A DNA stretch of 64,000 nucleotides from assembly GCF_030384885.1 (NCBI RefSeq), contig NZ_CP128613.1. One strand, 5' to 3'. Below, piece by piece: positions 20,454 through 57,371 of the stretch; positions within the stretch are counted from its first letter, which is position 1; each line of letters starts with the position of its first letter. The notes below the pieces were generated by a model. That model did not search any database. It was not told the DNA's origin and worked only from the letters and a program-made list of their open reading frames with translations. The stretch is from Escherichia coli (lineage in GTDB: Bacteria > Pseudomonadota > Gammaproteobacteria > Enterobacterales > Enterobacteriaceae). The position numbers were made by a program, and so were the translations under genes.

Positions 20454-23130
20454 CGAACCCTTACGTCCCGACCCCGATCGTCTGCTGGAACAAACTGCCG
20501 CGCCGCATCGGGGGAAGCTGAAAGTATTTTTCGGTGCCTGTGCAGGCGTCGGGAAGACCTGGGCGATGCTGGCAGAAGCCCAGCGACTGCGGGCGCAAGG
20601 GCTGGATATTGTGGTTGGCGTGGTTGAAACTCACGGACGGAAAGATACCGCCGCAATGCTGGAAGGGCTGGCTGTTCTGCCGCTAAAACGCCAGGCGTAC
20701 CGTGGGCGGCACATCAGCGAGTTTGATCTCGATGCCGCCCTCGCCCGCCGTCCGGCGCTGATCTTAATGGACGAACTGGCGCACAGTAATGCGCCAGGCT
20801 CTCGTCATCCTAAACGCTGGCAGGACATTGAAGAGCTGCTGGAAGCGGGCATTGATGTTTTCACTACCGTCAACGTTCAGCATCTGGAAAGCCTGAACGA
20901 TGTGGTCAGCGGCGTCACCGGAATTCAGGTGCGGGAAACCGTGCCCGATCCCTTTTTTGATGCTGCCGACGACGTAGTGCTGGTGGACTTGCCCCCAGAC
21001 GATCTGCGTCAACGGCTGAAAGAAGGCAAAGTCTATATTGCCGGGCAGGCGGAGCGCGCCATTGAACATTTTTTCCGCAAAGGCAATCTGATCGCCCTGC
21101 GCGAACTGGCACTGCGCCGTACTGCCGATCGCGTAGATGAGCAAATGCGCGCCTGGCGGGGGCATCCTGGCGAAGAGAAAGTCTGGCACACGCGCGACGC
21201 GATTCTTTTATGTATTGGGCATAACACCGGCAGCGAAAAACTGGTCCGCGCGGCGGCACGGTTGGCATCGCGCCTTGGGAGCGTCTGGCACGCGGTGTAT
21301 GTTGAAACCCCTGCCCTGCATCGCTTACCGGAGAAAAAACGTCGGGCAATTCTCAGCGCCTTACGTCTGGCGCAGGAGCTGGGCGCGGAGACAGCAACAC
21401 TTTCTGATCCGGCGGAAGAAAAAGCCGTAGTGCATTATGCCCGTGAACATAATCTCGGCAAGATTATTCTCGGTCGCCCGGCCTCGCGCCGCTGGTGGCG
21501 TCGGGAAACGTTTGCTGACCGACTGGCGCGCATCGCCCCCGATCTCGATCAGGTGCTGGTCGCGCTTGATGAACCACCCGCCCGCCCGCTTAATAACGCG
21601 CCGGATAGCCGCTCTTTTAAAGACAAGTGGCGGGTACAGATTCAGGGGTGCGTGGTTGCCGCCGCGTTATGTGCCGTTATCACCTTAATTGCCATGCAGT
21701 GGCTGATGGCGTTTGATGCCGCCAACCTGGTGATGCTGTATCTGCTTGGCGTGGTGGTGGTGGCGCTATTTTATGGACGCTGGCCTTCGGTGCTTGCTAC
21801 CGTCATTAATGTGGTGAGTTTCGATCTCTTTTTTATCGCCCCACGCGGCACGCTCGCCGTCTCTGATGTGCAATATCTGCTGACCTTCGCGGTGATGTTA
21901 ACCGTCGGGCTGGTGATCGGGAACCTTACTGCTGGCGTGCGTTATCAGGCGCGGGTAGCCCGTTACCGCGAACAACGCACACGGCACTTATATGAAATGT
22001 CGAAAGCTCTGGCTGTGGGCCGCAGTCCGCAGGACATCGCCGCCACCAGCGAACAATTTATTGCTTCTACGTTTCATGCCCGCAGCCAGGTATTGTTACC
22101 CGATGACAACGGTAAATTGCAGCCGTTAACACATCCGCAAGGAATGACGCCGTGGGACGATGCCATCGCGCAGTGGAGTTTTGATAAAGGCCTGCCTGCG
22201 GGCGCGGGCACCGATACGTTACCCGGTGTGCCATACCAGATTTTGCCGTTAAAAAGCGGTGAGAAAACCTACGGGCTGGTGGTGGTGGAACCGGGGAATC
22301 TGCGCCAGTTGATGATCCCGGAACAGCAACGCCTGCTGGAGACGTTCACGCTGTTAGTTGCCAATGCCCTGGAACGCCTGGCGCTGACCGCCAGCGAAGA
22401 ACAGGCGCGGATGGCAAGCGAACGAGAACAGATCCGCAACGCCCTGCTGGCGGCGCTTTCGCATGATTTACGCACGCCGCTTACGGTGCTGTTCGGTCAG
22501 GCAGAAATCTTAACGCTCGATCTGGCAAGCGAAGGATCGCCTCACGCCCGCCAGGCCAGCGAGATTCGTCAGCATGTGCTGAACACGACCCGACTGGTGA
22601 ATAATCTACTGGATATGGCGCGAATTCAGTCCGGCGGCTTTAATTTGAAGAAAGAGTGGTTAACGCTGGAAGAAGTGGTCGGTAGCGCGCTACAAATGCT
22701 GGAACCGGGATTATCATCGCCCATCAACCTGTCTTTGCCAGAACCGCTGACCTTAATCCACGTTGATGGGCCACTCTTTGAACGGGTGCTGATTAATCTG
22801 CTGGAGAACGCGGTGAAATATGCGGGTGCGCAGGCCGAAATTGGTATCGATGCCCACGTTGAGGGCGAAAATCTACAACTGGATGTCTGGGATAACGGCC
22901 CCGGTCTTCCGCCAGGTCAGGAGCAGACGATATTCGATAAGTTTGCTCGTGGAAATAAAGAGTCGGCGGTGCCGGGCGTTGGGCTTGGGCTGGCAATTTG
23001 TCGGGCGATTGTGGATGTACACGACGGCACCATTACCGCCTTCAACCGACCGCAAGGTGGTGCCTGTTTTCGTGTTACACTTCCCCAGCAAACTGCCCCT
23101 GAACTTGAAGAATTTCATGAGGATATGTGA
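20446..23130 (+). CDS. kdpD: Sensor histidine kinase KdpD
   Basis: ORF 20413..23130; start at [16 protein letters not shown]; H-box [14 protein letters not shown], ATPase G-boxes; overlaps kdpC end. Confidence 0.95.
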
Positions 23131-23804
23131 CAAACGTTCTGATTGTTGAAGATGAACAGGCTATTCGTCGCTTTCTGCGCACGGCGCTGGAGGGCGATGG
23201 GATGCGCGTCTTTGAGGCCGAAACGCTGCAACGCGGCTTGCTGGAAGCGGCAACCCGTAAGCCCGATTTGATTATTCTCGATCTCGGCCTGCCAGACGGT
23301 GATGGGATTGAGTTTATCCGCGACCTGCGCCAGTGGAGCGCGGTGCCAGTAATTGTGCTTTCCGCCCGCAGCGAAGAGAGCGACAAAATCGCCGCGCTGG
23401 ATGCTGGAGCGGATGATTATCTGAGTAAGCCATTTGGTATTGGCGAATTACAGGCCCGTCTGCGCGTTGCTTTACGTCGCCACTCCGCCACCGCCGCTCC
23501 CGATCCGCTGGTGAAATTTTCTGATGTTACCGTCGATTTAGCCGCCCGCGTAATCCACCGCGGCGAGGAAGAGGTGCATCTCACCCCGATTGAATTCCGC
23601 CTGCTGGCGGTGCTGCTCAACAATGCCGGAAAAGTGCTCACCCAGCGCCAGCTTCTCAACCAGGTGTGGGGACCAAACGCGGTCGAACACAGCCACTATT
23701 TGCGTATATATATGGGGCATCTGCGACAAAAACTGGAGCAAGATCCCGCCCGCCCTCGCCATTTTATTACTGAAACCGGTATTGGGTATCGGTTTATGCC
23801 ATGA
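23127..23804 (+). CDS. kdpE: Response regulator KdpE (OmpR family)
   Basis: 225-aa ORF, GTG start overlapping kdpD stop (GTGA); receiver domain (LIVEDEQAIRRFL...DLGLPDGDG) and winged-helix output domain. Confidence 0.95.
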   Translation: MTNVLIVEDEQAIRRFLRTALEGDGMRVFEAETLQRGLLEAATRKPDLIILDLGLPDGDGIEFIRDLRQWSAVPVIVLSARSEESDKIAALDAGADDYLSKPFGIGELQARLRVALRRHSATAAPDPLVKFSDVTVDLAARVIHRGEEEVHLTPIEFRLLAVLLNNAGKVLTQRQLLNQVWGPNAVEHSHYLRIYMGHLRQKLEQDPARPRHFITETGIGYRFMP

Positions 23805-23849
23805 ATTATTATTCAATAAATACGCTTAACTAATTATTAATTTATTATT

Positions 23850-23883
23850 AAACCTGCCCCGAAAATTATTATTTGGCAGGTTT
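23850..23883. terminator. Putative hairpin downstream of kdpE
   Basis: aaacctgcc-N15-ggcaggttt in AT-rich context; long loop, so weak. Confidence 0.35.
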
Positions 23884-24078
23884 AATTTCTTAATGAAAAT
23901 ATAACCTACGAAATTGCAACATTTAAACAACAAAACAGCATCTAATATGGCGCTATTCATAATTAACGATTTATTATTTGGGGTGTGATCGTTTTTTGTT
24001 GATCTTCTTCACAGTTTATAGCCTTTTCATGGATAGAATAACTCTACCTTCAACTGACACAGCAAAAGGTAAAGGTAA

Positions 24079-24183
24079 ATGGAAAATAATAACCGCTTAA
24101 TGCCTCATATAAGGCGGACAACCCATATCATGAAGTTTGCCCATCGTAATAGTTTTGACTTTCATTTCTTTAATGCCCGTTAG
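24079..24183 (+). CDS. speFL: speF leader peptide (ornithine-sensing ribosome arrest peptide)
   Basis: 34-codon ORF translated by hand: MENNNRLMPHIRRTTHIMKFAHRNSFDFHFFNAR*, about 310 bp upstream of speF; matches the described SpeFL leader; not in ORF track. Confidence 0.8.
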   Translation: MENNNRLMPHIRRTTHIMKFAHRNSFDFHFFNAR

Positions 24184-24493
24184 TCTTCTGACTAAAGGGC
24201 ACCCCAGCGTACAGGTCTCCCTGACTTTAAGCATTACAGGTTAATACCTGTATCCCTCGGTGCTCATATACTGCTAACCCTTTTAAACTCTAAATAATTC
24301 AAGTCGCAGCACTAGCAACTTGAAGTATGACGAGTATAGCCAGTTACCGGGCTGGTCTGGGTTATTGCATCTGCAAAAAGCAAACTACTGATTTATTTAT
24401 CAGCGGTGGAGTTTTGCTTTTTTTCCGGCGTGATCGATTTCTCCTTTGAGAAATTGAGGACCTGCTATTACCTGAAATAAAGAGATGAACAAA

Positions 24494-26692
24494 ATGTCAG
24501 AATTAAAAATTGCCGTTAGTCGTTCTTGCCCGGATTGTTTTTCCACTCATCGTGCATGCGTGAATATTGACGAAAGTAATTATATTGACGTTGCCGCCAT
24601 TATTTTATCAGTCAATGATGTTGAACGTGGAAAACTCGATGAAATAGACGCTACTGGCTATGGCATTCCTGTTTTTATTGCAACGGAAAATGAAGAACGT
24701 GTACCAGCAGAATATCTGCCACGTATTACTGGTGTCTTCGAGCATTGCGAATCACGGAAAGAATTTTATGGACGTCAGTTAGAAACCGCTGCCAGCCATT
24801 ATGAAACGCAGCTGCGCCCGCCCTTCTTCCGCGCACTGGTCGATTATGTCAATCAGGGCAATAGCGCTTTTGACTGCCCGGGTCATCAGGGGGGTGAGTT
24901 TTTCCGTCGCCATCCGGCAGGCAATCAGTTCGTGGAATATTTTGGCGAAATGCTCTTCCGCTCCGACTTGTGTAATGCCGACGTAGCAATGGGCGATCTA
25001 CTGATTCATGAAGGTGCGCCATGCATTGCACAGCAACATGCGGCTAAAGTGTTTAATGCCGATAAAACGTACTTTATTTTAAACGGCACCTCCTCTTCCA
25101 ACAAAGTGGTTTTAAACGCCCTGCTAACACCGGGTGATCTGGTGCTGTTTGACCGCAATAACCATAAGTCTAACCACCACGGGGCCTTGCTACAGGCTGG
25201 TGCAACACCGGTTTATCTGGAAACAGCACGTAACCCGTATGGTTTTATCGGTGGGATTGATGCGCACTGCTTCGAAGAAAGTTATCTGCGTGAACTGATT
25301 AGAGAAGTTGCACCGCAACGGGCAAAAGAGGCGCGTCCGTTCCGCCTCGCTGTGATTCAGTTAGGCACCTACGACGGTACTATTTATAACGCCCGCCAGG
25401 TGGTGGATAAAATCGGTCATCTGTGTGACTACATCCTGTTTGACTCAGCATGGGTCGGCTATGAACAGTTTATTCCGATGATGGCGGACTGTTCGCCGCT
25501 GCTACTGGAGCTTAATGAGAACGATCCGGGTATTCTGGTTACGCAATCTGTACATAAGCAGCAGGCTGGTTTTTCTCAGACTTCACAAATTCATAAAAAA
25601 GACAGCCATATCAAAGGGCAACAGCGTTATGTACCGCACAAACGCATGAACAACGCCTTTATGATGCACGCCTCCACCAGCCCGTTCTATCCGCTGTTTG
25701 CCGCACTGGATATCAACGCCAAAATGCATGAAGGTGTCAGCGGTCGTAATATGTGGATGGATTGTGTGGTTAACGGTATTAATGCCCGCAAATTGATCCT
25801 CGATAACTGTCAGCACATTCGTCCGTTCGTTCCTGAACTGGTGGATGGTAAACCCTGGCAATCGTATGAAACAGCGCAAATTGCGGTTGATCTGCGCTTC
25901 TTTAAATTTGTACCCGGTGAGCACTGGCATTCTTTTGAAGGTTACGCAGAGAACCAATACTTTGTCGATCCGTGCAAACTGTTGCTGACAACTCCTGGCA
26001 TTGATGCACGTAACGGCGAATATGAAGCATTCGGTGTACCCGCGACGATTCTTGCTAACTTCCTGCGCGAAAATGGCGTAGTGCCGGAAAAATGCGATCT
26101 TAACTCCATCCTCTTCCTGCTGACTCCGGCAGAAGATATGGCCAAACTGCAGCAACTTGTTGCCCTGCTGGTACGCTTCGAAAAACTACTGGAAGCTGAT
26201 GCGCCTCTGGCGGAAGTATTGCCTTCCATCTACAAACAGCATGAAGAGCGCTACGCCGGTTATACCCTGCGTCAGTTGTGCCAGGAAATGCATGATTTGT
26301 ATGCCCGTCACAACGTGAAACAACTGCAAAAAGAGATGTTCCGTAAGGAGCACTTCCCACGCGTCAGCATGAATCCACAAGAAGCCAACTACGCCTATTT
26401 ACGCGGTGAAGTGGAGCTGGTTCGTCTGCCGGATGCAGAAGGCCGTATCGCAGCCGAAGGTGCGCTTCCTTATCCTCCGGGTGTGCTGTGTGTTGTTCCG
26501 GGTGAAATCTGGGGTGGTGCTGTTCTGCGTTACTTCAGCGCTCTGGAAGAAGGGATCAACCTGCTACCAGGTTTTGCACCGGAGCTGCAGGGTGTCTATA
26601 TCGAAGAACATGATGGTCGTAAGCAAGTTTGGTGCTATGTCATCAAGCCTCGTGATGCGCAAAGCACCCTGTTGAAAGGGGAAAAATTATGA
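24494..26692 (+). CDS. speF: Inducible ornithine decarboxylase
   Basis: ORF 24485..26692; start placed at MSELKIAVSRS (732 aa) with SD agaga ~9 nt upstream; PLP-dependent Orn/Lys/Arg decarboxylase family; stop overlaps potE start. Confidence 0.9.
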   Translation: MSELKIAVSRSCPDCFSTHRACVNIDESNYIDVAAIILSVNDVERGKLDEIDATGYGIPVFIATENEERVPAEYLPRITGVFEHCESRKEFYGRQLETAASHYETQLRPPFFRALVDYVNQGNSAFDCPGHQGGEFFRRHPAGNQFVEYFGEMLFRSDLCNADVAMGDLLIHEGAPCIAQQHAAKVFNADKTYFILNGTSSSNKVVLNALLTPGDLVLFDRNNHKSNHHGALLQAGATPVYLETARNPYGFIGGIDAHCFEESYLRELIREVAPQRAKEARPFRLAVIQLGTYDGTIYNARQVVDKIGHLCDYILFDSAWVGYEQFIPMMADCSPLLLELNENDPGILVTQSVHKQQAGFSQTSQIHKKDSHIKGQQRYVPHKRMNNAFMMHASTSPFYPLFAALDINAKMHEGVSGRNMWMDCVVNGINARKLILDNCQHIRPFVPELVDGKPWQSYETAQIAVDLRFFKFVPGEHWHSFEGYAENQYFVDPCKLLLTTPGIDARNGEYEAFGVPATILANFLRENGVVPEKCDLNSILFLLTPAEDMAKLQQLVALLVRFEKLLEADAPLAEVLPSIYKQHEERYAGYTLRQLCQEMHDLYARHNVKQLQKEMFRKEHFPRVSMNPQEANYAYLRGEVELVRLPDAEGRIAAEGALPYPPGVLCVVPGEIWGGAVLRYFSALEEGINLLPGFAPELQGVYIEEHDGRKQVWCYVIKPRDAQSTLLKGEKL

Positions 26693-28008
26693 GTCAGGCT
26701 AAATCGAACAAAATGGGCGTCGTTCAGTTAACCATACTGACGATGGTCAACATGATGGGCTCCGGCATCATCATGCTGCCGACAAAGCTTGCCGAAGTTG
26801 GGACGATCTCAATAATCTCCTGGTTGGTGACAGCCGTAGGCTCAATGGCGCTGGCATGGGCATTCGCAAAATGCGGTATGTTCAGCCGTAAATCAGGCGG
26901 TATGGGCGGTTATGCCGAGTATGCTTTCGGTAAATCCGGTAACTTTATGGCGAACTATACCTACGGCGTCTCGCTGCTGATTGCTAACGTGGCGATTGCT
27001 ATTTCGGCAGTTGGTTACGGCACCGAACTGCTCGGCGCGAGTTTGTCACCAGTGCAGATTGGTCTGGCAACCATCGGAGTGCTGTGGATTTGTACCGTGG
27101 CTAACTTTGGTGGTGCGCGCATTACCGGGCAAATCAGTAGCATTACCGTGTGGGGGGTCATTATTCCGGTGGTAGGCCTGTGCGTTATCGGCTGGTTCTG
27201 GTTTAGCCCGACACTTTACGTTGATTCCTGGAATCCGCATCATGCACCGTTCTTCAGTGCGGTAGGTTCTTCCATCGCCATGACGCTGTGGGCTTTTCTT
27301 GGTCTGGAGTCTGCGTGTGCGAATACTGATGTAGTGGAAAACCCGGAACGTAATGTGCCAATCGCGGTACTCGGCGGTACGTTAGGTGCGGCGGTGATTT
27401 ATATCGTCTCCACCAACGTGATTGCCGGGATTGTGCCCAATATGGAGCTGGCAAATTCAACGGCACCATTTGGTCTGGCCTTCGCGCAAATGTTCACACC
27501 GGAAGTGGGTAAAGTCATTATGGCGCTGATGGTGATGTCCTGCTGCGGTTCACTGCTTGGCTGGCAGTTCACCATTGCCCAGGTGTTTAAATCTTCATCT
27601 GATGAAGGCTACTTCCCTAAAATTTTCTCCCGTGTAACCAAAGTGGATGCACCGGTTCAGGGGATGTTGACCATTGTGATTATTCAGAGTGGATTGGCAC
27701 TGATGACCATTAGCCCGTCACTGAACAGCCAGTTCAACGTGCTGGTTAACCTGGCCGTGGTGACCAATATCATTCCGTATATCCTGTCGATGGCGGCATT
27801 AGTCATTATTCAGAAGGTCGCCAATGTGCCACCATCAAAAGCGAAAGTAGCAAACTTTGTTGCCTTTGTTGGTGCGATGTACAGTTTCTATGCGCTGTAC
27901 TCATCCGGGGAAGAAGCCATGCTGTACGGTTCCATCGTGACTTTCCTTGGTTGGACACTGTATGGTCTGGTATCACCACGCTTTGAACTGAAAAACAAAC
28001 ACGGTTAA
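26689..28008 (+). CDS. potE: Putrescine:ornithine antiporter
   Basis: 439-aa APC-family membrane ORF overlapping speF stop (ATGA). Confidence 0.9.
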   Translation: MSQAKSNKMGVVQLTILTMVNMMGSGIIMLPTKLAEVGTISIISWLVTAVGSMALAWAFAKCGMFSRKSGGMGGYAEYAFGKSGNFMANYTYGVSLLIANVAIAISAVGYGTELLGASLSPVQIGLATIGVLWICTVANFGGARITGQISSITVWGVIIPVVGLCVIGWFWFSPTLYVDSWNPHHAPFFSAVGSSIAMTLWAFLGLESACANTDVVENPERNVPIAVLGGTLGAAVIYIVSTNVIAGIVPNMELANSTAPFGLAFAQMFTPEVGKVIMALMVMSCCGSLLGWQFTIAQVFKSSSDEGYFPKIFSRVTKVDAPVQGMLTIVIIQSGLALMTISPSLNSQFNVLVNLAVVTNIIPYILSMAALVIIQKVANVPPSKAKVANFVAFVGAMYSFYALYSSGEEAMLYGSIVTFLGWTLYGLVSPRFELKNKHG

Positions 28009-28052: not shown

Positions 28053-28090
28053 TTGTTGACAAAGAGTTCGTTATTTATGCCGCATCCGGC

Positions 28091-28232
28091 AGGTGTAGGG
28101 TCCAAACGCGGTCGAACACAGCAACTATTTGCGTAATTATATGAGGCATTTGCGACAAAAACTGGAACAGGATCTCGTCCGCCCCGCCATTTCATTACTG
28201 AAACCGGTATTGGGTATCGGTTTATGCTTTGA
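28091..28232 (+). pseudogene. Degenerate duplicate of the kdpE 3' end (kdpE-homolog remnant)
   Basis: ~142 bp roughly 90% identical by eye to 23663..23804 (the last ~47 codons of kdpE), same orientation, frame broken; likely equivalent to the K-12 kdpE-like pseudogene remnant (name uncertain). Confidence 0.75.
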
Positions 28233-28355
28233 AAAAAGTGGCAATGTATGGATAAAGTCATTTTTTATTCAAATATAAGGAACTTAATATTTAAAAAATG
28301 TCCCATACAATGCCTCATCATAAATGACACCGTAGCACACAAGGAGCAAGTAGCG

Positions 28356-48106: not shown

Positions 48107-48183
48107 GGCTACGTAGCTCAGTTGGTTAGAGCACATCACTCATAATGATGGGGTCACAGGTTCGAATCCCGTCGTAGCCACCA
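48107..48183 (+). tRNA. metT: tRNA-Met (elongator, anticodon CAT)
   Basis: ggctacgtagctcagttggttagagcacatcactCATaatgatggggtcacaggttcgaatcccgtcgtagccacca; cloverleaf with CCA end. Confidence 0.95.
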
Positions 48184-48191
48184 TCTTTTTT

Positions 48192-48276
48192 GCGGGAGTG
48201 GCGAAATTGGTAGACGCACCAGATTTAGGTTCTGGCGCCGCAAGGTGTGCGAGTTCAAGTCTCGCCTCCCGCACCA
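48192..48276 (+). tRNA. leuW: tRNA-Leu (long variable arm; anticodon read as TAG, assigned by eye)
   Basis: gcgggagtggcgaaattggtagacgcaccagatttaggttctggcgccgcaaggtgtgcgagttcaagtctcgcctcccgcacca (85 nt). Confidence 0.9.
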
Positions 48277-48299
48277 TTCACCAGAAAGCGTTGTACGGA

Positions 48300-48374
48300 T
48301 GGGGTATCGCCAAGCGGTAAGGCACCGGTTTTTGATACCGGCATTCCCTGGTTCGAATCCAGGTACCCCAGCCA
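48300..48374 (+). tRNA. glnU: tRNA-Gln (anticodon TTG)
   Basis: tggggtatcgccaagcggtaaggcaccggtttTTGataccggcattccctggttcgaatccaggtaccccagcca. Confidence 0.9.
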
Positions 48375-48407
48375 TCTTCTTCGAGTAAGCGGTTCACCGC
48401 CCGGTTA

Positions 48408-48482
48408 TTGGGGTATCGCCAAGCGGTAAGGCACCGGTTTTTGATACCGGCATTCCCTGGTTCGAATCCAGGTACCCCAGCC
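48408..48482 (+). tRNA. glnW: tRNA-Gln (anticodon TTG), second copy
   Basis: Identical 75-nt sequence to 48300..48374. Confidence 0.9.
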
Positions 48483-48497
48483 ATCGAAGAAACAATC

Positions 48498-48574
48498 TGG
48501 CTACGTAGCTCAGTTGGTTAGAGCACATCACTCATAATGATGGGGTCACAGGTTCGAATCCCGTCGTAGCCACC
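48498..48574 (+). tRNA. metU: tRNA-Met (elongator, anticodon CAT), second copy
   Basis: Identical to 48107..48183. Confidence 0.95.
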
Positions 48575-48623
48575 AAATTCTGAATGTGTCGAATGCGTTC
48601 GGCAAATTCACAAACCAATTTGT

Positions 48624-48698
48624 TGGGGTATCGCCAAGCGGTAAGGCACCGGATTCTGATTCCGGCATTCCGAGGTTCGAATCCTCGTACCCCAGCCA
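48624..48698 (+). tRNA. glnV: tRNA-Gln (anticodon CTG)
   Basis: tggggtatcgccaagcggtaaggcaccggattCTGattccggcattccgaggttcgaatcctcgtaccccagcca. Confidence 0.9.
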
Positions 48699-48735
48699 AT
48701 TTATTCAAGACGCTTACCTTGTAAGTGCACCCAGT

Positions 48736-48810
48736 TGGGGTATCGCCAAGCGGTAAGGCACCGGATTCTGATTCCGGCATTCCGAGGTTCGAATCCTCGT
48801 ACCCCAGCCA
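48736..48810 (+). tRNA. glnX: tRNA-Gln (anticodon CTG), second copy
   Basis: Identical 75-nt sequence to 48624..48698. Confidence 0.9.
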
Positions 48811-56293: not shown

Positions 56294-57202
56294 ATGCAAT
56301 TACGTAAACCTGCCACAGCAATCCTGGCCCTGGCGCTTTCCGCAGGACTGGCACAGGCAGATGACGCCGCCCCGGCAGCAGGCAGTACGCTGGACAAAAT
56401 CGCCAAAAACGGTGTGATTGTCGTCGGTCACCGTGAATCTTCAGTACCTTTCTCTTATTACGACAATCAGCAAAAAGTGGTGGGTTACTCGCAGGATTAC
56501 TCCAACGCCATTGTTGAAGCAGTGAAAAAGAAACTCAACAAACCGGACTTGCAGGTGAAACTGATTCCGATCACCTCACAAAACCGTATTCCGCTGCTGC
56601 AAAACGGCACTTTCGATTTTGAATGTGGTTCAACCACCAACAACGTCGAACGCCAAAAACAGGCGGCTTTCTCTGACACTATTTTCGTGGTCGGTACGCG
56701 CCTGCTGACCAAAAAGGGCGGCGATATCAAAGATTTTGCCGACCTGAAAGGCAAAGCCGTAGTCGTTACTTCCGGCACTACCTCTGAAGTTTTGCTCAAC
56801 AAATTGAATGAAGAGCAAAAAATGAATATGCGCATCATCAGCGCCAAAGATCACGGTGACTCTTTCCGCACCCTGGAAAGCGGTCGTGCCGTTGCCTTTA
56901 TGATGGATGACGCCCTGCTGGCCGGTGAGCGAGCGAAAGCGAAGAAACCAGACAACTGGGAAATCGTCGGCAAGCCGCAGTCTCAGGAAGCCTACGGTTG
57001 CATGTTGCGTAAAGACGATCCGCAGTTCAAAAAGCTGATGGATGACACTATCGCTCAGGTGCAGACCTCCGGTGAAGCGGAAAAATGGTTTGATAAGTGG
57101 TTCAAAAATCCAATTCCGCCGAAAAACCTGAACATGAATTTCGAACTGTCGGACGAAATGAAAGCACTGTTCAAAGAACCGAATGACAAGGCACTGAACT
57201 AA
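56294..57202 (+). CDS. gltI: Glutamate/aspartate ABC transporter periplasmic binding protein
   Basis: ORF 56219..57202; start at MQLRKPATAILALALSAGLAQA (signal peptide), 302 aa. Confidence 0.9.
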   Translation: MQLRKPATAILALALSAGLAQADDAAPAAGSTLDKIAKNGVIVVGHRESSVPFSYYDNQQKVVGYSQDYSNAIVEAVKKKLNKPDLQVKLIPITSQNRIPLLQNGTFDFECGSTTNNVERQKQAAFSDTIFVVGTRLLTKKGGDIKDFADLKGKAVVVTSGTTSEVLLNKLNEEQKMNMRIISAKDHGDSFRTLESGRAVAFMMDDALLAGERAKAKKPDNWEIVGKPQSQEAYGCMLRKDDPQFKKLMDDTIAQVQTSGEAEKWFDKWFKNPIPPKNLNMNFELSDEMKALFKEPNDKALN

Positions 57203-57209
57203 TTACAAG

Positions 57210-57359
57210 AACCAGGGGCGGAAATTCTAGCCCTCTCGATTGTTACGTAGCACGGACAGACTATACGCCTGATGGTCGTTCCCCATCGGGCCTGAAAACC
57301 GCAATACGCTGGGTAACAATCTTCGAGGGTAGCAGTTAACGCTGCTACCCTCTTTTTTC
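57210..57359 (+). ncRNA. sroC: Candidate SroC-type sRNA from the gltI-gltJ intergenic region, ending at an intrinsic terminator
   Basis: 169-bp intergenic spacer inside the operon containing hairpin gagggtagcagttaacgctgctaccctc (57325..57352) plus T-run; SroC is described at this position. 5' end not determinable from sequence. Confidence 0.5.
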
Positions 57360-57371
57360 TGGAGTAGATTT

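Follow-up and report, generated by a model that had tools for sequence, protein, structure and literature searches.

The SpeFL leader ORF of the speF-potE operon in an Escherichia coli genome and the two leader haplotypes of the species

Is a 34-codon open reading frame in the AT-rich DNA before speF the ornithine-sensing leader of the speF-potE operon, and what do its differences from the E. coli K-12 sequence signify? The question arose from a stretch of 64,000 nucleotides of Escherichia coli DNA (assembly GCF_030384885.1, contig NZ_CP128613.1; here called the window), in which the original prediction had recognised the ORF without database searches and had given its coordinates and peptide exactly. 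The ORF (24079..24183) starts with ATG, consists of 34 codons plus a TAG stop and encodes MENNNRLMPHIRRTTHIMKFAHRNSFDFHFFNAR. It is embedded in the gene order kdpE - speFL - speF - potE, with all four genes, and all leader elements described below, on the plus strand. According to the ORF list and the RefSeq annotation of a near-identical strain, the upstream neighbour kdpE occupies 23127..23804, and its stop lies 274 nt 5' of speFL. The regulated gene speF encodes the inducible ornithine decarboxylase (24494..26692, from the ORF list and the RefSeq annotation of strain EC42405) and is co-transcribed with potE, annotated as the putrescine-ornithine antiporter (26689..28008). The mechanical ORF list begins speF at 24485, while RefSeq begins it at 24494 in EC42405, whose leader region is 100% identical to that of the window. 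Because of this annotation, and because the upstream in-frame ATG at 24485 is out of frame in K-12 through a 2-nt difference, we place the speF start at 24494. The spacer between speFL and speF is then 310 nt, in line with the predicted distance of about 310 bp.

By its sequence, its position and its annotation, the ORF is SpeFL, the ornithine-sensing leader of the speF-potE operon. A match to SpeFL had been proposed together with an alignment as its check, and the alignment bears it out: the window peptide and the SpeFL chain of PDB 6TBV/6TC3 share 32 of 34 residues over the full length (E 1.7e-18), and the peptide scores 27.9 bits against Pfam PF10940 (Leader peptide SpeFL / DUF2618), for which the cut-off is 25. 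In EC42405 the label 'leader peptide SpeFL' (WP_001312672.1) is found in RefSeq at exactly the equivalent of 24079..24183, and the same protein is annotated in O157:H7 and other strains. A scan of the window peptide against NCBIfam gave no HMM match; the name given by PGAP evidently comes from a rule type other than an NCBIfam HMM. An exhaustive representative protein search with the peptide returned 14 matches, all of them SpeFL variants or damaged forms. The element is already known: it was described in 2019-2020, and has since been seen in a ribosome-bound structure, made into a Pfam family and annotated by NCBI. The suggestion that length-filtered ORF calling would miss it is right for a naive cut-off of 60 aa but not for PGAP, which already annotates speFL. 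The case illustrates that a 34-codon regulatory ORF is recognisable from raw sequence. Its length alone is not significant, since 26 ORFs of at least 20 aa overlap the same surrounding 1.5 kb; the significance of the ORF lies in its homology, in the pattern of substitutions relative to K-12 and in the conserved synteny.

K-12 SpeFL (b4803; PDB 6TBV/6TC3; Herrero del Valle et al., 10.1101/604074) is the same gene at the same locus. It translates to MENNSRTMPHIRRTTHIMKFAHRNSFDFHFFNAR, and the differences from the 34 residues of the window peptide are limited to S5N and T7L. [quoted passage not shown] The ornithine-recognition motif HIRRTTH, an instance of HIRRXXH as defined in 10.1101/604074, is read from the translation at codons 10-16 (24106..24126) and is preceded by nine residues. 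The residues that proved to be required in the published experiments (H10, I11, R12, R13, H16, F26, F28, F30 and F31) are all present in the window translation, and F20, N32 and the contact residues E2, N3 and P9 are kept as well. R12 and R13 are encoded by the consecutive rare arginine codons AGG CGG (24112..24117, per-codon table), which are identical in K-12 and Salmonella. These codons have been given roles in the exposure of the rut site and in arginine sensing (10.1101/604074; PMC6386406). The TAG, which directly follows R34 (codon 34), is conserved.

At the DNA level, 12 speFL codons differ between the window and K-12, 10 of them synonymously. Within codons 8-34 all nine differences (9/9) are synonymous and fall on third positions, for which the chance is about (1/3)^9; the codon pattern reads as frame-specific purifying selection on the SpeFL peptide. 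speFL is followed by speF at eight more loci, which come from five or more other genera; this order holds in Salmonella, Yokenella, Pluralibacter, K. aerogenes and Y. enterocolitica, also where the upstream gene is a different one.

The features that the published mechanism calls for are all found in the window: the HIRRXXH motif, the Phe core with Asn32, the rare arginine codons, a stop within a hairpin and before a pause consensus, and pairing potential between the 3' end of speFL and the speF ribosome-binding site. A putative promoter of the speF operon (24034..24047) has the -10-like element TAGAAT at 24034-24039, with transcription likely to start near 24046-24047; the promoter block TGGATAGAAT is conserved in both K-12 and the window. 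In Salmonella the transcription start was mapped 31 nt upstream of the orf34 ATG (PMC6386406), to which the position in the window corresponds by alignment. A scan for consensus sigma-70 promoters found no site where the Salmonella start predicts one, and the promoter is therefore assigned by homology. The sequence AAAGG (24065..24069), 9 nt before the ATG, is the probable Shine-Dalgarno sequence of speFL, and GAAAGG is invariant in the alignment of the window, K-12 and Salmonella. PGAP additionally annotates a 43-aa CDS at 23969-24100, which overlaps the putative promoter and the start of speFL in a different frame and is called 'TonB-dependent receptor' in some strains and 'hypothetical protein' in others. 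This CDS has no Pfam match, lies where the intergenic region is least conserved and is probably a spurious call.

An approximate candidate rut region, biased towards C over G, was delimited by composition at 24118..24280. The C/G ratio is 1.3-2.5 in 60-nt windows starting at 24085 to 24265, and at most 1.1 from the window starting at 24280. The published model places the rut site over the 3' part of speFL (10.1101/604074), and the modest C>G bias would be compatible with such a region. The last speFL codons and the TAG are enclosed in a predicted hairpin (24174..24201), which corresponds to the published RNA polymerase pause hairpin; its folding energy is -16.4 kcal/mol (z -3.3), and 0 of 200 shuffled sequences were as stable. 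The leaders of K-12, Salmonella, K. aerogenes, Yokenella, Pluralibacter and L016, one of the copies of a second E. coli locus described below, fold into an equivalent hairpin; that of Y. enterocolitica does not, and that of another second-locus copy, L017, does not do so cleanly. The sequence from 24198 to 24209 matches the consensus pause element G-11 G-10 ... Y-1 G+1 (G24198, G24199, C24208, G24209) and is part of a block, CAGCGTACAGGTCT, that is conserved across genera. This element, with its use, is described in the legend to Supplementary Fig. 4 of 10.1101/604074; homology would put the end of the attenuated transcript near 24208. An Rfam scan of the leader gave nothing at any family's gathering score.

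With the identity, the motif, the codons, the hairpin, the pause consensus, the pairing potential, the synteny and the purifying selection read from the sequence itself, we are highly confident that speFL works here as published for E. coli K-12 and Salmonella (10.1101/604074; PMC6386406; review PMC12360218); none of the observations speaks against it. For the window allele we infer ornithine binding, the block of RF1 and Rho dependence from this published work; ornithine-dependent, puromycin-resistant arrest at codons 33-34 was demonstrated for the K-12 sequence only (10.1101/604074). According to the model, transcription would begin about 30 nt upstream of speFL, and RNA polymerase would pause at the hairpin around the speFL stop, which a translating ribosome would melt. 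At low ornithine, the ribosome would terminate at UAG and leave, and slow decoding of AGG-CGG would hold back the trailing ribosomes. This would expose the C-rich stretch that covers the 3' part of speFL and continues beyond it, Rho would load, and transcription would end near 24208. At high ornithine, an ornithine molecule would be trapped between the 23S rRNA and the HIRRTTH loop of the nascent peptide, while the Phe-rich C-terminal domain would compact and block RF1, leaving the ribosome stalled with codon 34 in the P site. Stalled and queued ribosomes would cover the rut region, allowing transcription to proceed into speF-potE. As the stalled ribosome would also occupy 24150-24172, a segment predicted to be otherwise paired with the speF Shine-Dalgarno sequence and AUG, translation of speF would be released at the same time.

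Among known systems, the Salmonella Typhimurium orf34/SpeFL (Ben-Zvi et al., PMC6386406) is an ortholog at the same locus; its residues 1-6, MENNNR, are those of the window peptide, while it has F7 and M19 where the window has L7 and K19. Its leader undergoes Rho-dependent termination, to which we liken the presumed behaviour of the window leader. TnaC, the leader of tnaCAB with its tryptophan-dependent arrest, resembles SpeFL in that a small-molecule block of release at the leader stop masks rut and prevents Rho termination (PMC12360218). It differs in having an unrelated peptide, Trp as the ligand, RF2 acting at UGA and another pocket in the tunnel. TnaC is thus an analogue of SpeFL and not a member of its family.

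To assess the pairing with the start of speF, the 483-nt leader was folded to its minimum free energy (z -4.17). In this fold, speFL codons 24-32 (24150..24172) form the 5' arm of a long-range helix, the 3' arm of which (24478..24505) contains the speF Shine-Dalgarno sequence AAGAG (~24480-24484), the ATG start codon (24494) and the codons directly after it. The helix has two parts, one of 10 bp between 24150-24159 and 24496-24505 and one of 12 bp between 24161-24172 and 24478-24489. A small downstream hairpin is formed at 24212-24223. For the window, the long-range duplex has a predicted energy of -19.5 kcal/mol, which 9 of 300 shuffles reached; in K-12 it is weaker, at -13.8 kcal/mol and no better than shuffles, because two synonymous K-12 changes (CAC, TTC) break pairs. 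It is clearly better than shuffles only in window-type leaders, and not clearly so in K-12, Klebsiella aerogenes, Yokenella, Pluralibacter and Yersinia. In Salmonella the equivalent helix was proven by compensatory mutations (Ben-Zvi et al., PMC6386406), and the segments involved, TTTCATTTCTTTAAT in speFL and ATAAAGAGATGAA at the speF ribosome-binding site, are the same as in the window. For six helices of the spacer in 7 sequences, 94% of the cells were paired versus 33-44% with the partners slid, and 3 compensatory pairs were found; with too little variation among the 7 sequences for significance, this was no better than column shuffles.

The same elements are used differently in the model of Ben-Zvi et al., in which arginine and RNase G would dominate: the speed of the ribosome over AGG-CGG would chiefly decide between two alternative folds of the leader, and thereby the stability of the speF mRNA, and the ornithine arrest would be secondary. 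This mechanism was demonstrated in Salmonella (PMC6386406), the only organism in which the arginine/RNase G layer has been shown, and the two arginine codons, the stop-codon hairpin, the hairpin at 24212-24223 and the long-range helix are all present in the window. However, the model complements the ornithine arrest and does not replace it, as both papers treat the same ORF. Moreover, the central spacer with the 'ring' site is not conserved: the spacer measures 380 nt in Salmonella and 257-310 nt in E. coli, and the central part of the Salmonella spacer is unrelated to that of the window and is not an ERIC element. The RNase G-sensitive structure may for this reason not carry over to E. coli. 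A dominant role of arginine and RNase G is possible, but we lean against it and retain the ornithine-dependent arrest as the main mode of control.

The second part of the question concerns the deviations from K-12. The K-12 leader DNA is only ~83% identical to that of the window, as compared with ~95-98% in the flanks. A sensitive blastn search with 24040-24283 against 5426 complete E. coli genomes detected the locus in 5044 of them. The identity to the window was at least 95% in 3334 genomes (window type) and 80-90% in 1702 (K-12 type), with 7 intermediate genomes at 90-95%; the distribution is therefore bimodal, and window-type leader DNA is the commoner E. coli form, present in about two thirds of the complete genomes with the locus. 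At the protein level, the window and K-12 peptides are each found on at least 1000 contigs in a 15-billion-protein collection. The original prediction had given SRT for residues 5-7 of K-12, correctly as the b4803 translation shows, and had taken the deviating NRL of the window to reflect either a strain variant or an error in the K-12 sequence it had in mind; it is a strain variant, and the NRL allele is widespread in E. coli. Both forms are natural, and that of the window is the commoner and the more consensus-like. The N-termini of relatives read MENNNRFM (Salmonella), MENNNRLM, MENNNRMM, MENNNRIM and MENNNRKM, with MENNSRLM and MENNSRRM being rarer. By this comparison, the window allele is nearer than that of K-12 to the family consensus MENNNRxM and to the form in Salmonella and other Enterobacteriaceae, and the combination of S5 with T7 in K-12 is less usual. 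Common variation affects positions 5, 7 and 14, which the HIRRXXH motif leaves free, and position 19 (K or M), while other residues vary in rarer alleles.

Frameshifts or premature stops in related strains, or a lack of homology to SpeFL, had been named as evidence that would speak against the assignment. Neither applies: the homology is clear, and frameshifted, fused, truncated or IS1-disrupted forms of speFL are rare, on 1-19 contigs, next to the intact alleles with their at least 1000 contigs each. A variant whose N-terminus is new (MNKLESLPPHIRR...) was seen on 18 contigs, among them loci of E. coli GCA_024585965.1 and GCA_045574165.1. It was considered as a third N-terminal allele and rejected, as one of these two loci has IS1 transposase genes immediately before speFL, and an insertion of IS1 into a K-12-type speFL is the simplest account. 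The variant is without the sensor-hairpin residues 1-8, and its ornithine sensing should be abolished. In another K-12-type locus, that of E. coli N921 (NZ_CP176484.1), speF is a pseudogene with a frameshift and an internal stop, and the leader ORF is intact; here the 34-codon leader is annotated as 'hypothetical protein'.

Of the 53 additional nucleotides in the window spacer (310 nt versus 257 nt in K-12), most belong to a 52-nt segment at 24287..24338. The comparison of repeats identified it as a 'short' ERIC/IRU element that lacks its internal part and is inserted at a TA. In the leader fold it has a hairpin of its own (24298-24304 with 24318-24324). The segment is a dispersed repeat, present in 5425 of the 5426 E. 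coli genomes at a median of 6 places per genome. In a K-12 strain, the interval from dxs to yajO contains a full-length element; both its ends match the ends of the window copy, and it carries what we take to be the two ERIC-PCR primer sites. In the window copy, the two ends of the full-length ERIC are joined directly, with the internal part deleted. Since the same TA site is without ERIC in K-12, Yokenella, K. aerogenes and Pluralibacter, the short ERIC is a derived insertion. In E. coli Z1323HEC0355, the short copy is directly followed by a full-length ERIC, giving a spacer of 434 nt, and a series of none, short and short plus full ERIC hence exists within E. coli. A simpler scheme, in which spacers of 257, 310 and 380 nt would represent none, short and full ERIC with the full element in Salmonella, was rejected, as the extra Salmonella sequence is unrelated to ERIC. 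The ERIC is expected to have little effect on ornithine sensing, because it lies downstream of the predicted termination point and forms a separate hairpin. It may influence the stability of the mRNA, since the equivalent section of the Salmonella spacer is the 'ring', in which deletions alter stability (PMC6386406). In a literature search no paper was found that links ERIC to speF. The ERIC also coincides with a weak, sub-threshold Rfam match to the Salmonella sRNA isrH (24282-24338, 18 bits, E 0.03, model positions 159-216), which suggests that the isrH model contains ERIC-like sequence.

The divergence from K-12 extends beyond the leader. The kdp genes, the 3' portion of speF and potE are 95-98% identical to K-12, but a block from ~23660 to ~25150 is 65-88% identical; it runs from the 3' end of kdpE through the intergenic region with speFL into speF, of which it takes in the first 650 nt (to codon ~220). 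Some E. coli carry a second copy of speFL-speF-potE, which in strain CFS3292 is located directly upstream of cadA and lysS (L017/L018, NZ_CP026935.2 4580621-4584618) and which is also represented by L016; it adjoins remnants of CDI/VENN toxins and IS elements. The 34-aa leader of the second copy, MENNNRKMPHIRRVTH..., is annotated only as 'hypothetical protein'. The spacer and the 5' end of speF in the window are 98% identical, without gaps, to the second copy of CFS3292, compared with 83% to K-12, and the promoter region of the second copy is unrelated to that of the window. This pattern suggests recombination between the paralogous speFL-speF-potE loci, in either direction. In addition, the last 145 nt of kdpE (23661-23805) are repeated just 3' of potE at 28090-28233 with ~90% identity and a 1-nt deletion; the repeat belongs to the ybfI pseudogene in K-12 and to a frameshifted winged-helix pseudogene in EC42405. 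The cassette speFL-speF-potE is consequently flanked by direct repeats of the kdpE 3' end, as would be expected if it had been inserted into or next to kdpE. Just 3' of kdpE, an inverted repeat, AAACCTGCC ... GGCAGGTTT (23850-23883), with a 16-nt AT-rich loop and a T-rich tract after it, may represent the terminator of the kdp operon. It is overlapped by a sub-threshold Rfam match to STnc370 (26.8 bits, gathering score 54).

Two leader types so sharply separated (3334 and 1702 genomes, with only 7 between them) raise the possibility that the window-type leader is tuned differently from that of K-12, in its ornithine threshold, in the tightness of the OFF state or in mRNA stability. The predicted duplex onto the speF ribosome-binding site (-19.5 versus -13.8 kcal/mol) is consistent with such a difference, as is the location of the ERIC at the spacer position equivalent to the Salmonella 'ring', where deletions alter mRNA stability (PMC6386406). 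Deletion of residues 1-7 abolishes arrest in K-12 SpeFL (10.1101/604074), and an effect of S5N and T7L, which fall within the N-terminal sensor hairpin, on ornithine sensitivity is conceivable. However, Salmonella orf34, with N5 and a hydrophobic F7, responds to ornithine, which makes it very likely that the N-terminal variant is functional, and the ERIC is a separate local hairpin beyond the predicted termination point (~24208). Altered tuning therefore seems unlikely to us. Still more doubtful is the fuller proposal that the commoner haplotype as a whole (N5/L7, short ERIC and a 22-bp helix at the ribosome-binding site) is measurably differently regulated, and that the dimorphism possibly stems from recombination with the island-borne copy adjacent to cadA. 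Irrespective of regulation, the K-12 reference leader is not typical of E. coli, as about two thirds of the genomes with the locus have the ERIC-bearing haplotype with a different predicted pairing, and the difference is relevant when regulatory data from K-12 are extrapolated to pathogens such as O157:H7. We regard the observations on the ERIC, the haplotypes and the repeats as modest leads and not as discoveries.

That the ORF is a non-coding chance product of AT-rich intergenic DNA, with regulation being purely RNA-based, deserves next to no credence: short ORFs are plentiful (26 of at least 20 aa in 1.5 kb) and the overlapping 43-aa CDS of PGAP looks spurious, but the substitutions in speFL are frame-specific and synonymous, the peptide remains conserved between genera whose flanking DNA is down to 45-65% identity, the SpeFL peptide has been seen within the ribosome (PDB 6TBV), a double-frameshifted template abolishes stalling (10.1101/604074), and the published frameshift and start-codon mutants already refute this reading (10.1101/604074, PMC6386406).

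Elsewhere in the window, seven tRNA genes are located at 48107-48807, the corresponding cluster in EC42405 being Met, Leu, Gln, Gln, Met, Gln, Gln. Beyond ~48 kb, the window is offset by ~200 nt from EC42405 and hence does not stem from that very strain. A full-length gene for the sRNA sroC lies at 57198-57360 (170.8 bits).
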